Assembly (NCBI GenBank): GCA_965247145.1
Contig: CBDFGH010000006.1
Location: 104,778 to 168,777 of the forward strand
Reading direction: 5' to 3'
DNA from: Rickettsiales bacterium
Lineage (GTDB): Bacteria; Pseudomonadota; Alphaproteobacteria; Rickettsiales; JAIXRX01
DNA: 64,000 nucleotides
Shown: one piece after another, positions 24,332 to 30,356 of the stretch
Layout: every line of letters begins with the position of its first letter
How positions within the stretch are numbered: the first letter of the stretch is position 1
Translations under genes and position numbers: made by a program
The notes under the pieces: generated by a model
The model's input: only the letters and a program-made list of their open reading frames with translations
Told to the model about the DNA's origin: nothing
Databases searched by the model: none

Positions 24332-25171
24332 CTAAAGCACGCGCTCGATGGAGGCGGCCGCGGCCTTGCGCGAATCCATCAACCGCTGACGAAAATTGCC
24401 GATATCTGCCGCATAGTGGCTGGGCACCAATTCTGCGTATCCCTGGGCGCGCGCTTCCTCTGCCATGTTTTCATCTTTCGCGCGTTCTTTCCTCTGGCCA
24501 CGGGTTTCGCTGGTCAGCCATTTGGTGACTGCATACACGACAGCACCGATGGCCGTCGCCGCCATCAGGCTGTAGATCAACACATTGGTGCGGGTCTCTT
24601 TCGAAAGATTTTTCCACCGCAGCGAAAGGATGTTGTTGTTGTGCAATTCGTCGACGACTTTTTCATCCACCACATTGCGGAATGGACGACGCGACATCTG
24701 TTCGTTATTGGCTTTGTAAACTGCCTTCAATCGCTCATCGACGGAAATCTGTTCTATGGTTGAAAAATGCTTGGACAGCCCCAAGAACGTTTCATCCGTA
24801 GGAATCGCTTTACCACCAGCCAGTTTTTGTATTTCCGCGCTTTTCTGGGCAAGTTGTTCATACACGCCTCTGATTTCCGGTAGTTCCTTTAATTCAGCCA
24901 GGCGATGTCTATCGATATCGTTCTCCGCATGCCGCAACTGGCGGGCGAGATCAACCAGCTTGTGGTATTTCTCCTGCAGATAGACGCCATACCCCACGAT
25001 GCCGGAGGTAATGCCGGCGAGAATGAACGGGGTCCATTCACGCTTGCCGTCCGCCACCACACGGCGCTCGCGGCGTTTCTGCAAAGCGAGCAATTCCTCA
25101 CGCATCGCTTCGGGCGTGGCCGAATCGGGCGGGGTTTGCTGCGTTGAGGTTTTGAGCGGGGATTCGACCAT
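24332..25171 (-). CDS. Hypothetical two-TM coiled-coil membrane protein (279 aa)
   Basis: Hydrophobic helices WTPFILAGITSGIVGYGVYL and NVLIYSLMAATAIGAVVYAV flank a charged helical region of about 140 aa. The ATG (25169-25171) overlaps the TAA of the upstream 735-aa gene as TAATG. Confidence 0.6.
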   Translation of the reverse strand: MVESPLKTSTQQTPPDSATPEAMREELLALQKRRERRVVADGKREWTPFILAGITSGIVGYGVYLQEKYHKLVDLARQLRHAENDIDRHRLAELKELPEIRGVYEQLAQKSAEIQKLAGGKAIPTDETFLGLSKHFSTIEQISVDERLKAVYKANNEQMSRRPFRNVVDEKVVDELHNNNILSLRWKNLSKETRTNVLIYSLMAATAIGAVVYAVTKWLTSETRGQRKERAKDENMAEEARAQGYAELVPSHYAADIGNFRQRLMDSRKAAAASIERVL

Positions 25172-27632: not shown

Positions 27633-30356
27633 ATGAGTGGCGGCCCGAATTTAACCAGCGGATTGGCGGATAGCCTGCGTTCCGCCACTTCTTCCAGCAC
27701 CCTGCTCAAAGTAGCAGACCGGGTGACGGGGGGAATGTATGTGGTGCCTGCGGGCCATCGTTTCCGTACGCTCGCCTTCTCGCTCGGCTTCAGCCTGGCT
27801 GGCAACAGCATCATGCAGGTGCTGAACGGCGAAGACGGCAAGGGACACCAGATCAAGAAGGAAGACGTCGTTTTCTTCCTGCGCCCGCTGCACGGCTTGC
27901 TGGAACACAACAAACATTCGGACGATCCGGAAGACCGCTGGAAGGAAGTGGCCGGTCGCGCTTTGCCCATCCTCGGGGCTGCCGTGGGGGCTTATGTCGG
28001 CAGCTACAACTGGGCGGCCACTTCGCCGGGCGGCAGCGCCAACATGGACAGCGCGAAAGAAACCGCCGCGATTCTGGCGGGCAAAGGTAGCATCACCGCT
28101 TCCCAAGCGAGTATTTACGTGGATGCCGAGCGCGGCAATGCCTCGCGCATTATCGGCGGCATTCTGCAATCGCTCGGTCTGCATAGCGGTATCCATCAGC
28201 TCTTCGTGCCTTCCGTCATCAACCTCGGCGTGGGCCTGGGCGGGGCTTTCCTGGGTGCGAACAACCGCGTGCTGAACGCCGCCGGCACCGAAGGCTTGAA
28301 GAAAAGCACCAGCGAGATGGCCGACCATCTGGGCCGCAACACCTACAACAAAGTACTTTCCCAACTGGCAAAGGAAGAACCGCAGGCCGCACGCGATTTC
28401 CTAACGAAAGTGCTCACCGTCAAAGGCGCGGCGCCCAGCGCGGAAATGGTGGAAAAAGCGCTGGAGCGCATCTATGCGGGCAGCGGTATCGATCTCATCG
28501 AGAATTTCGCCAATAAAAGCCTCAATCGCTATCTGGCGCGTGCGGCGGTTGATTACCGTAAATCCATCGCGAATGTCAGCACCGCACTGGCGGCGGACCA
28601 GAACAGCGTCATCGCCGGATTGACACAGAAGAAGGACGGCATTTCCCCGCTTCAGGTCTGGATCGATCAGATGAAGAGCGGCAAAAAACCCGAAGAGGTG
28701 GTGAAGGATATCGAAAAGGCAGGCGCGGAAGTGGCGCAGGCTGCCTTCGGCCCGAACTTCCTGAAAACCATTCGCGCCGCCGGGTTCGACGAAAAGAAAA
28801 TCGAGATCGGGGAAAGCAACTGGGTTTACCGCGTTTTCGAATGGCTCATCCCCGGCAGCAAAACCAAAGCCGAGACGCGCCTGCAGGAATCTTTCGCCCA
28901 AACGGCCACAGCGCAAAGCCTCCCCGCGGCCGACCTGGTGTCGAACGTCAAAGGCATCGGGCCGGATCTGGGGGCGAAATTGCTGGGCGGTGCCGCCGCT
29001 CTCAGCGTGGCGGGTATGGTTGCCGCGAAACCAAAAACCACGCCCGATCTTTTTGCGGGATATCGTGAGCGGGCGAAGGAGCGCAGCTTTAAGGGCTTCC
29101 TCAACAAACATGTGCTGCCGAAATTCGAATTCGTCACCCGCATGTCCATCGCCGACCCTTCCTGGGGCCGCTTTTGGCTGGCGGGTGGTTTCACACTCGG
29201 CCTCGTTGGCGGCGATTATCTGATGCAGCTGCCCTTCGGGCGCTCGGTCAATCCTACCATTGCGGGTGATCTGCTGAACAAGCTGCCCACCCTGCCCACC
29301 CCTTCCTTCATGAACAAGTTCAAAGGCTCGTTGGCCTATGATCCCTTGAGCGGCACGGACCGCGACCGCTGGCTGAAAACCGCCAACGTAATGGCGGTGA
29401 TGGCCTTCGGCGCACTCGGCACTTTCCTCGGGGCGCGCTGGGCGACCAAAGACCGCCGCCAGAAACTGATGAGCAAAGACCCGGTCTATCTCGACGATTT
29501 CGAAGACCGCGTCACCTTTGCCCAAGGGAAAGCGTGGGAAATTCCCACCGCCATCGCCTCCACCCCCGGCAGCGCTTTGGGCACCACGCATTTCGGCCTG
29601 ATTCCGGGCGTGAATTACGGCGCCAACATCGCTAACTACCACTTGCTTTCCAACGGCGGCAAGATCGCCTGGCAAGGCCCCGGCAAAGTATTGATGGGTT
29701 CGCAGTCGCGCTACCGCTTCGGCCCGGTGAAACTCATCGATCACATGATCCAATACGCCGCCTATAACCCCGACGAATTGCCCAAGCAACTCACCGAGAT
29801 GGCCGCCGGCATCGTGCTGCCCTGGTTCCCGGATGCCACGCCGCTGCAGGTGAATGCCTTCGCCGCCGAACTCATCAAAATCCGCAATGCGCACTGGCAG
29901 CAAGGCGGCATCGCTGCCGAAAAGAAAGAAGGCCTGATCAAGGAAATGACCGAGCATTTCCGCGGCGCGGGGTTGGAGAAAATGCTGATCGAAATCGGGC
30001 TCAACCCGGCGGAAGCGAAGCTGGGCAATAACGGCCTCATCGGGCAGGTTTCCGAAGTCTTCGGTGCGCGCGGCGAAACTAAAAAGTTGAATCTCGATTT
30101 CCTGAAGAGCCTGGAGAACCGCCACCCCGAGCAATGCCAGGCACGCCGCGACCGCGTGGCCACCGGCAAAGCCCAATCCCCCACCACCGCCATTCTGGCG
30201 GCGGACGCCCTGACGCAGACCGACCGCAACGGCGGCAGCTTCGCCAGTCGCCTTTCCTCCCGCGACAGCGCGCAAAATATCGTCACGGCACGCACCGGCC
30301 AAACCGCCCTGCAGCGCACCGAAGCCAGCCGCGAAAGCGCCGCACTGGCGCTTTAA
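27633..30356 (+). CDS. Hypothetical large polytopic membrane protein (907 aa) with an internal duplication
   Basis: Natural composition, unlike the R/G/H-rich antisense ORF 28401..30359. Two copies of a module are present. Copy 1 is RFRTLAFSLGFSLAGNSIMQVLNG...DPEDRWKEVAGRALPILGAAVGAYVGSYNWA. Copy 2 is RFWLAGGFTLGLVGGDYLMQLPFG...GTDRDRWLKTANVMAVMAFGALGTFLGARWA. Confidence 0.65.
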   Translation: MSGGPNLTSGLADSLRSATSSSTLLKVADRVTGGMYVVPAGHRFRTLAFSLGFSLAGNSIMQVLNGEDGKGHQIKKEDVVFFLRPLHGLLEHNKHSDDPEDRWKEVAGRALPILGAAVGAYVGSYNWAATSPGGSANMDSAKETAAILAGKGSITASQASIYVDAERGNASRIIGGILQSLGLHSGIHQLFVPSVINLGVGLGGAFLGANNRVLNAAGTEGLKKSTSEMADHLGRNTYNKVLSQLAKEEPQAARDFLTKVLTVKGAAPSAEMVEKALERIYAGSGIDLIENFANKSLNRYLARAAVDYRKSIANVSTALAADQNSVIAGLTQKKDGISPLQVWIDQMKSGKKPEEVVKDIEKAGAEVAQAAFGPNFLKTIRAAGFDEKKIEIGESNWVYRVFEWLIPGSKTKAETRLQESFAQTATAQSLPAADLVSNVKGIGPDLGAKLLGGAAALSVAGMVAAKPKTTPDLFAGYRERAKERSFKGFLNKHVLPKFEFVTRMSIADPSWGRFWLAGGFTLGLVGGDYLMQLPFGRSVNPTIAGDLLNKLPTLPTPSFMNKFKGSLAYDPLSGTDRDRWLKTANVMAVMAFGALGTFLGARWATKDRRQKLMSKDPVYLDDFEDRVTFAQGKAWEIPTAIASTPGSALGTTHFGLIPGVNYGANIANYHLLSNGGKIAWQGPGKVLMGSQSRYRFGPVKLIDHMIQYAAYNPDELPKQLTEMAAGIVLPWFPDATPLQVNAFAAELIKIRNAHWQQGGIAAEKKEGLIKEMTEHFRGAGLEKMLIEIGLNPAEAKLGNNGLIGQVSEVFGARGETKKLNLDFLKSLENRHPEQCQARRDRVATGKAQSPTTAILAADALTQTDRNGGSFASRLSSRDSAQNIVTARTGQTALQRTEASRESAALAL

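Follow-up and report, generated by a model that had tools for sequence, protein, structure and literature searches.

The stretch of DNA considered here, the window, comprises 64,000 nucleotides from a Rickettsiales bacterium (GCA_965247145.1, contig CBDFGH010000006.1, positions 104,778 to 168,777 of the forward strand). It contains two large genes that are transcribed divergently and encode proteins of 907 and 735 amino acids (aa), here called F0 and F1, and a gene for a 279-aa protein whose start overlaps the end of F1 (Table 1). The loci of the closest relatives are designated L001 and L002. A preliminary description of this DNA took the two large proteins to be paralogous, giant membrane proteins without relatives, which together with the 279-aa protein might form one functional unit. 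The reading frames, the TAATG overlap, the AT-richer gap of 254 bp and the peptide strings quoted in that description are all present. The overlap between F1 and the 279-aa gene reads TCG-TAA-TGG, while the orthologous junction in L001 is a TGATG overlap.

Table 1. Features of the F0/F1 locus. Positions are those of the window; GC3, GC content at third codon positions; dN/dS, ratio of nonsynonymous to synonymous substitution rates; HMM, hidden Markov model; i-E, independent E-value; AF2, AlphaFold2; pLDDT, predicted local distance difference test; PWM, position weight matrix; ORF, open reading frame.
Feature	Position	Strand	Basis or remark
F0, 907 aa	27633..30356	+	ORF; GC3 0.75; dN/dS 0.25 versus L001
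F1, 735 aa, GTG start	25171..27378	-	ORF; divergent partner of F0
279-aa gene	24332..25171	-	ORF; TAATG overlap with F1 stop
Shared divergent control region	27379..27632	none	254 bp, GC 0.49, flanks ~0.60
Direct-repeat array 1, TGAAGTTTGTGTTAC overlapping TTACGGTTCCGTGAA	27450..27475	+	T(G/T)A(A/C)-N7, 11-bp phase; conserved in L001 and L002
Direct-repeat array 2, TTACAGCCATATGAA overlapping TGAAGATTGTGTGAC	27501..27526	+	PWM 23-25 bits
Inverted repeat of the preliminary description, ATCTTCAT / ATGAAGAT	27491..27518	none	Right arm inside array 2
F0 N-terminal module, divergent copy (residues 22-428)	27696..28916	+	HMM: residues 22-230, i-E 5.4e-36; residues 347-428, i-E 1.7e-4
F0 hairpin 1 (residues 41-130)	27753..28022	+	AF2 helices 41-65 / 99-130, pLDDT >90
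F0 inter-module Gly/Ala-rich hydrophobic stretch (residues 441-464)	28953..29024	+	Kyte-Doolittle 1.58; family mean 1.21; low pLDDT
F0 C-terminal module, best-conserved copy (residues 489-853)	29097..30191	+	Module HMM i-E 1.1e-123
F0 hairpin 2 (residues 511-604), second module copy of the preliminary description	29163..29444	+	hhalign; AF2 helices 511-535 / 576-604
F0 C-terminal tail ending ...SAALAL, poorly conserved	30192..30353	+	pLDDT <50 from residue 862
F1 residues 90-112, Arg-rich stretch then short Gly/Ala-rich helix	27043..27111	-	Family-mean Kyte-Doolittle 1.22
Secreted Dioxygenase_C-like protein	23619..24326	-	Pfam PF00775, E 9e-21; 5 nt downstream of the 279-aa gene

Long antisense ORFs (716 and 652 aa) are also found. 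The GC3 is 0.75 in the frames of Table 1, as in the housekeeping genes, versus 0.57-0.60 in the long antisense ORFs. When the three genes are compared with their L001 orthologues third-position differences predominate, and the dN/dS values relative to the orthologues are 0.25 (F0), 0.27 (F1) and 0.38 (279-aa gene). Because of the housekeeping-like GC3, the third-position bias and dN/dS values of 0.25-0.38, all of which favour these frames over those of the opposite strand, the three ORFs are genuine genes.

None of the three window proteins gives anything above threshold in Pfam-A 2025, NCBIfam 20.0, PADLOC 2.0 or PHROGs v4, in agreement with the initial impression that no characterised family could be recognised. 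The 279-aa protein displays a sub-threshold match to DUF4407 (E 9.6e-4, 19 bits versus a cutoff of 31.3). F0 and F1 have Gly-rich hydrophobic stretches in common with the Pfam glycine-zipper families and DUF4407, but neither of them matches Gly-zipper_Omp, Gly-zipper_YMGG, Rick_17kDa_Anti or DUF4407 up to E 1. In a word-indexed search of 5.8 billion proteins F0 had two relatives and F1 one, while the 279-aa protein had none, so that all three resembled ORFans, the label first given to the two large ones. For F0 the label was overturned by a full HMMER scan of 1.84 billion representative proteins with a three-sequence profile, which found 110 representative relatives of F0. Ten diverse further members of the family have no match in Pfam or NCBIfam.

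Many of the F0 relatives are 800-900 aa long, while others of 360-500 aa correspond to just one of the two parts, N or C. They carry one or two copies of an all-alpha module of about 350 aa. An HMM of the C half, made from three close sequences, matches both halves of distant family members, for instance P0007 (9e-54 and 3e-58), and an HMM built from 75 module instances in the F0 relatives matches both halves of the window protein. Judged by these profile matches, F0 is a tandem duplication of the ~350-aa module. The two-copy module that had been noticed in the 907-aa protein is thus present, although it is larger than described and what was seen is the start of the repeat. When the two halves are aligned by hhalign, residues 49-125 match residues 520-602. 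In the rather distant locus L024 F0 is split into two adjacent genes with one module each (1716-2945 and 2952-4274, +; 409 and 440 aa), and such split genes account for the many ~400-aa representatives that match only one part.

Each module opens with a conserved hairpin, in which a conserved loop containing His, Asp, Arg and Trp connects two long Gly/Ala-rich helices; a helical domain comes next. In hairpin 1 an invariant His42-Arg43 is followed by a Gly/Ala/Ser-rich helix, the loop LRPLHG..YN..SD.P.DRW and the second Gly/Ala-rich helix. The hairpin helices have small residues at GxxxG-like spacing (A.GL..GL..G and Ga.GA..GS). The stretch between the modules, residues 441-464, is the most hydrophobic conserved segment of F0 by family mean, and the C-termini of many relatives end in hydrophobic and small residues like that of F0 itself. 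An AF2 model based on an alignment of 40 sequences is all-alpha with a pLDDT of 74.4 and a predicted template modelling score (pTM) of 0.77, and the hairpin helices are its most confident parts; a model made from a three-sequence alignment had a pLDDT of 36 and was not used. Foldseek found no match to the 40-sequence model in PDB (best E 0.09, template modelling score ~0.1) or BFVD (best E 0.16), and the F0 family profile has no match among PDB chain sequences (best E 0.09). The predicted fold of F0 is probably new.

F1 contains several conserved motifs, GRSLGaE..vTFDFA.aS.GDa..RN, NQGEDWAaalPYvyQMK.QR, RFvGYNWyTLMyRE, and sYTPYM.AKaE. Fifteen F1 members have no match in Pfam or NCBIfam, and the F1 profile has none in PDB up to E 1. 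It had been proposed that F1 contains a weaker version of the F0 module and that the two are paralogues. All sequence and profile comparisons that bear on this are non-significant: BLASTP of F1 against F0 gives E 0.32, hhalign of three-sequence profiles gives E 0.15 with an alignment outside the proposed module, the F0 modules against the proposed F1 stretch give E 0.016 and 0.27, and the F0 module HMM against F1 gives E 0.49. With 15 full-length F1 sequences against 75 F0 modules hhalign returns a probability of 0.1% (E 0.78). On these comparisons F1 is a separate family and not a detectable paralogue of F0.

A first genome scan, using peptides specific to the subgroup of the window, found no loci. 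When an alignment of one F0 subgroup was used, 21 loci were obtained, all of them in metagenome-assembled genomes (MAGs) recorded as Rickettsiales bacterium, as Alphaproteobacteria bacterium UBA... or as gut-type Azospirillum sp. Three locus pairs among them are halves of contig-split genes, which leaves 18 genomes, or 21 when the window, L001 and L002 are included. In 18 of these 21 genomes a divergent F1 adjoins F0 on its upstream side (it is missing in L013, L019, and L021), and the intergenic region is deeply conserved. Of the unit that had been suggested, the divergent 735/907 pair is conserved; the 279-aa gene occurs in the window and L001 alone. The order in L001 is DUF2336, rhodanese, Dioxygenase_C, the 279-aa gene, a 728-aa gene and a divergent 919-aa gene, while in L002 an N-terminal fragment of a 735-like gene and a 903-aa gene point away from each other. 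Five more loci (group A), which have a GC content of 0.43-0.51 and varied contexts, came from scanning metagenomes with another F0 subgroup.

In most genomes the pair is located directly upstream of rpsB-tsf, followed by pyrH-frr-uppS-cdsA-dxr-rseP-bamA; rpsB and tsf were confirmed with Pfam, while the remaining genes of the cluster were assigned by order and size. This position argues for vertical inheritance. Compared with the window copies, the MAG proteins are 64-74% identical in the case of RpsB and 48-67% in that of Tsf, but the values are only about 25% (F0) and 30% (F1) for the pair. Between the window and L001 the identity is 71% for F0, 63% for F1, 39% for the 279-aa protein and 100% for the N-terminus of RpsB. 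By these figures the pair evolves fast and its arrangement is kept. The dN/dS values of 0.25-0.27 for F0 and F1 indicate purifying selection. The carriers have a GC content of 46-63%, and fumC and genes encoding MCP-like proteins are present in them; fumC, a dioxygenase-like gene and the rpsB cluster are syntenic as well. A mobile or defence island was considered and rejected given the fixed site upstream of rpsB, the housekeeping-like GC3 and the lack of a match in PADLOC or to plasmids, tblastn against plasmids being negative.

Some of these loci differ in detail. In L013 the place of F1 is taken by an unrelated 363-aa ORF without a Pfam family (8691-9782, -), and in L019 there is about 1.5 kb without a long ORF (8449-9974), which may be a decayed gene; the repeat element described below is still found upstream of F0 in both. 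The L014 locus encodes a ribosomal protein S2 of 425 aa in total with C-terminal DUF1508 repeats (12844-14121, +), unlike RpsB of the window, which has a Lys/Glu/Ala-rich tail.

The control region between F1 and F0 displays 73% column identity among the window, L001 and L002, where the synonymous divergence is about 0.9-1.1. It contains the two direct-repeat arrays. An element of tandem T(G/T)A(A/C)-N7 units in 11-bp phase is found upstream of F0 and on the F0 strand in 26 of 26 loci, compared with our own chance estimate of about 0.15 per 300 nt, and in ten loci, including some without F1, it is placed at -97 to -107 from the F0 ATG. Among the distant MAGs nearly every F1/F0 gap has ATGTGAAGCTTTTGTGACAG and a second TGACAGTTnnnTGAAGATT. 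The 8-bp inverted repeat pointed out earlier is perfect in the window (27491-27498 / 27511-27518). As an operator it was rejected, since neither L001 nor L002 retains its left arm; the same 400 nt, moreover, hold a second perfect inverted repeat of 8 bp. Rfam gave nothing in the window or in the intergenic region, and a consensus scan for sigma-70 promoters and terminators did no better than shuffles. Reading the repeats as sigma-70 -35 and -10 boxes was likewise abandoned, the spacing being inconsistent across loci when inspected by eye.

On the other side of the gap the F1 leader is strongly conserved in the MAG loci, for instance at 9738-9790 in L018, where it reads CTGTGGTAgTCTGTAAGGTGAGAAAAACCATG on the F1 strand. 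It contains a -10-like TAnnCT hexamer near the Shine-Dalgarno sequence AAGGTGAG. A similar sequence, ATCATAGTmTTAGATTG, is found upstream of three group-A F0 genes (L024, L026, and L027).

When the window was scanned with a PWM of the repeat element there were nine matches at 11 bits or more, versus 1.4 expected and a maximum of five in 100 simulations. Eight of the nine are intergenic, two of them in the F1/F0 gap, and one lies inside pyrH. The six other intergenic matches are found 20-120 nt from the starts of five genes without a qualifying Pfam hit. The first encodes a Gly/Ala-rich multi-span protein of 619 aa (3479-5338, +) with Kyte-Doolittle values up to 2.2, no Pfam family and the C-terminus ...VVIGV; its motif (3379-3400, -) is placed about 100 nt upstream, reads CTGTCATAAAAGCTTAAC on the gene strand and scores 26.7 bits. 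A 463-aa protein (58505-59896, -), which has no Pfam family, a Lys/Glu-rich middle and a C-terminal transmembrane segment, is encoded in a lower-GC stretch, and the motif TTACGATTGTGTGAC (59944-59965, +) is found about 50 nt upstream of its start. Between lpxI and lpxB, within the lipid A cluster, there is a 312-aa ORF (47576-48514, -) without a Pfam family and with a Gly-rich, weakly hydrophobic C-terminal region, and the 90-nt gap separating it from lpxB holds two overlapping motifs (48563-48595, +; at 48563 and 48574).

The remaining two genes are small. A 152-aa ORF (2217-2675, -), which belongs to no Pfam family and begins with a signal-like segment, has a GC content of about 0.40 and sits in the strongest GC dip of the window (0.484 over 2001-3000); the motif (2733-2754, +) is about 60 nt upstream, and this may be a foreign gene that has been captured by the same regulon. 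The other is a 168-aa ORF (9375-9881, -), favoured by GC3 over an overlapping ORF on the + strand, with a full-length but sub-threshold match to Flagellin_N (E 6.7e-5, 23.4 bits versus a cutoff of 26.6). Its motif (10001-10022, +) is weaker (13.2 bits) and is found about 120 nt upstream.

The architecture of the repeats resembles the type of site bound by response regulators of the OmpR family. CenR of Rhodobacter sphaeroides and other Alphaproteobacteria recognises TGA-N8-TGA, for example TGACGCAGCTGTGAA; its sites are co-directional with the gene and placed just upstream of the -35 box, and the regulon consists almost wholly of envelope proteins (PMC9275681). A TGA-N8-TGA tandem repeat is found by sequence at F0 as well, TGACAGTTCGATGAA, within about 100 bp upstream and co-directional with the gene. 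Several of the motif-preceded genes of the window encode hydrophobic segments or a signal peptide, as would be expected for envelope proteins. However, the published regulon table does not contain a homologue of F0 or F1 (PMC9275681). Among the half-sites of the present element there are also TTAA and TTAC, similar to CtrA boxes. The CtrA consensus, TTAA-N7-TTAAC, is also close to these repeats. ChvI was discarded as a candidate regulator, its published motif being different (TTGC-N3-GCAA or GCC-N8-GCC).

The three proteins differ when it comes to hydrophobicity. Using 19-residue Kyte-Doolittle windows and the classical transmembrane threshold of 1.6, F0 of the window has one segment at 1.67, while the others are at 1.0-1.6 and the hairpin helices at about 1.3-1.5; the maximum of F1 is 1.27. 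The family means of the hydrophobic segments of F0 and F1 are 0.9-1.2, under the threshold, with the F0 hairpins at about 1.0. Residues 90-112 make up the only conserved hydrophobic segment of F1, no other family-mean window reaching 1.0. The 279-aa protein, with segments at residues 47-65 (1.37) and 197-215 (2.09), is the only one with a clear transmembrane segment. The first description of F0 and F1 as giant membrane proteins is thus not borne out by their weakly hydrophobic windows (family means ~1.0-1.2), and hydropathy gives no backing to a polytopic membrane protein or translocon. F0 might instead associate with membranes peripherally or conditionally through its glycine-zipper hairpins. 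Glycine-zipper helical hairpins are known to drive membrane association in Mic10 of MICOS, and the helix bundles of pore-forming colicins and Bcl-2-type proteins have a hydrophobic hairpin. F0 is similar in having two long helices rich in small residues packed as a hairpin in an all-alpha protein, but there is no sequence or fold match to these proteins, and F0 is far larger, internally duplicated and bacterial.

The sole relative of the 279-aa gene is the one in L001 (39% identity). At its position other loci have a gene with an MCP signalling domain (family F12), and this was tried and rejected as its counterpart (hhalign E 0.37); no link to F12, F1 or the F0 module was found by hhalign. Instead of a partner in a conserved unit, as had been suggested, the 279-aa gene appears to be a lineage-restricted accessory that is translationally coupled to F1. 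The preliminary description also listed the dioxygenase-like gene and sseA as possible members. The former is a frequent neighbour on the F1 strand: besides the window and L001, its family (F3, by BLAST clustering) is found in 11 MAG loci, in several of them directly after F1. The latter adjoins the pair in no locus other than the window and L001, while the distant L027 has a rhodanese about 7 kb away. In those distant loci in which F1 and the dioxygenase-like gene are separated by a gene, it encodes an unrelated MCP-signal protein and/or a DJ-1/PfpI protein, and in eight loci a membrane protein with an MCP signalling domain is encoded downstream of F1 on the same strand. Upstream of sseA both the window (21519-22739, +) and L001 have a gene encoding a DUF2336 protein, 80% identical between them, which NCBIfam SpbR matches in part (E 8e-31) and well under the cutoff.

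Our tentative reading of the locus, which we put somewhat short of an even chance, is that F0 and F1 form a co-regulated and probably envelope-associated gene pair, which has been inherited vertically and is restricted to one clade of Alphaproteobacteria, most of them uncultured. A CenR/CtrA-type regulator of the OmpR family would bind the repeats and activate the pair along with a limited group of proteins particular to the lineage. F0 and F1 would then cooperate at the inner face of the cell envelope, where F0 might be attached through its weakly hydrophobic glycine-zipper hairpins and not as a classical polytopic membrane protein, and the F1 operon would have the 279-aa protein as an accessory part, perhaps along with the secreted dioxygenase-like protein. 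It is conceivable, if rather doubtful, that F0 and F1 are an undescribed envelope or cell-pole machine and the conserved core of a CenR/CtrA-type regulon whose other members are lineage-specific proteins, with F0 as a pseudo-dimer of modules that has a new all-alpha fold and a glycine-zipper hairpin in each module.

Several points weigh against a co-regulated envelope pair. The function of F0 and F1 is read from their context, nothing characterised being homologous to them. None of the five group-A F0 loci has an F1 within 8 kb, and three genomes of the rpsB-linked lineage (group B) have no F1 adjoining F0, so F0 is evidently able to work without an adjacent F1. Because the group-A loci lack it, F1 is a partner specific to the rpsB-linked lineage, and among related genomes the adjacency may partly reflect inherited gene order. 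Both proteins could be soluble, the family means of the hairpins being ~1.0-1.2. The placement of the repeats refers to the F0 ATG and not to a mapped transcription start, and the PWM was trained on the intergenic regions it describes, so that only the matches elsewhere are independent. Finally, the class of regulator is suggested by motif resemblance only; a design of two 11-nt units is common to PHO boxes, and that of CtrA is similar.

Some of these points would also fit F0 and F1 being functionally independent and adjacent by inherited gene order at rpsB, F0 being soluble and the repeats serving simply as promoter elements of the individual genes. F1 is absent beside F0 from five of five group-A loci and from three of the 21 genomes of the rpsB lineage, synteny extends to fumC, the dioxygenase-like gene and the rpsB cluster, and the hydropathy of F0 and F1 is weak. 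However, the stretch from F1 to the dioxygenase-like gene varies in content (the 279-aa gene, an MCP-like gene, a DJ-1-like gene, or nothing), while the F1/F0 junction and its cis elements are fixed, and divergent pairs that keep a control region at protein identities of about 25-30% would usually be co-regulated. We regard independence as unlikely.

The Dot/Icm effector genes of Legionella and Coxiella are preceded by tandem repeats of the OmpR family and controlled by PmrA and CpxR. The situation here is similar in that one response-regulator-type repeat marks scattered, fast-evolving genes without known domains, and F0, F1 and the other motif-preceded proteins might accordingly be exported effectors or surface factors of host- or protist-associated Alphaproteobacteria under one response regulator, with moderately hydrophobic hairpins that insert into a target membrane after export. 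Apart from this precedent, several features would suit such proteins. A set of lineage-specific proteins of the window is encoded downstream of an OmpR-type tandem repeat, and F0, F1 and the 279-aa protein evolve fast relative to the housekeeping genes. The hairpin hydrophobicity is intermediate, under the classical threshold for inner-membrane insertion, and F0 has a disordered C-terminal tail whose last residues are small and hydrophobic. The carriers, moreover, are titled Rickettsiales bacterium and gut-type Azospirillum sp. MAGs. Nevertheless we find export distinctly unlikely. Unlike the Legionella and Coxiella effector genes, F0 and F1 occupy a fixed housekeeping position over deep divergence, and effectors would not usually keep a fixed site by rpsB over 64-74% RpsB identity. 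Genes for a secretion system were seen neither in the 64-kb window nor in the loci, which span 4-23 kb; a dN/dS of about 0.25 is ordinary purifying selection, and the GC content of 46-63%, fumC and the MCP-like genes do not indicate reduced endosymbiont genomes.

PHO boxes consist of two or three direct-repeat units of 11 nt with a 7-nt core, CTGTCAT in E. coli and GTTCACC in Streptomyces (PMC4415409). The pair might belong to a PhoB phosphate-starvation response, for example in membrane remodelling. On the F1 strand the element reads CTGTCACAAAA-GCTTCACAT, two 11-nt units, of which the first has the core CTGTCAC and resembles that of E. coli, while the second core resembles that of Streptomyces (PMC4415409). 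Only this architecture and the first core fit a PHO box; the second unit diverges (CTTCAC), and no phosphate-related gene is linked to the element; the other element-bearing genes are unannotated except for one that is flagellin-N-like, none of them is a known member of the Pho regulon, and CenR sites match at least equally well. A phosphate response is very unlikely. The original proposal of a three-part translocon or envelope machine, made up of two paralogous giant polytopic membrane proteins and a coupled 279-aa coiled-coil protein, draws on the divergent arrangement, the TAATG coupling, the Gly/Ala-rich helices of both large proteins and the conservation of the F0/F1 pair, but is hardly credible with a profile probability of 0.1% between F1 and the F0 module, a 279-aa gene in two genomes only, a single weakly hydrophobic segment in F1 and F0 segments below the classical transmembrane threshold, and it is contradicted by these sequence comparisons on both paralogy and co-occurrence of the 279-aa gene.

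At present the locus is a well-delimited pair of conserved uncharacterised proteins and not a demonstrated system. As such it adds two sizeable families without relatives among curated families or solved structures, which are kept as a divergent pair with a control region. That both the pair and its control region are retained at protein identities of about 25-30% suggests a function that is important to a whole branch of mostly uncultured Alphaproteobacteria. The repeat element provides an experimental handle on the regulator, and would allow the rest of the regulon to be listed in complete genomes of the clade. Should CenR or CtrA prove to be the regulator, the known envelope or cell-cycle circuitry of the Alphaproteobacteria would gain undescribed components through the pair, while if the proteins are exported, they would represent a conserved class of membrane-inserting factors.

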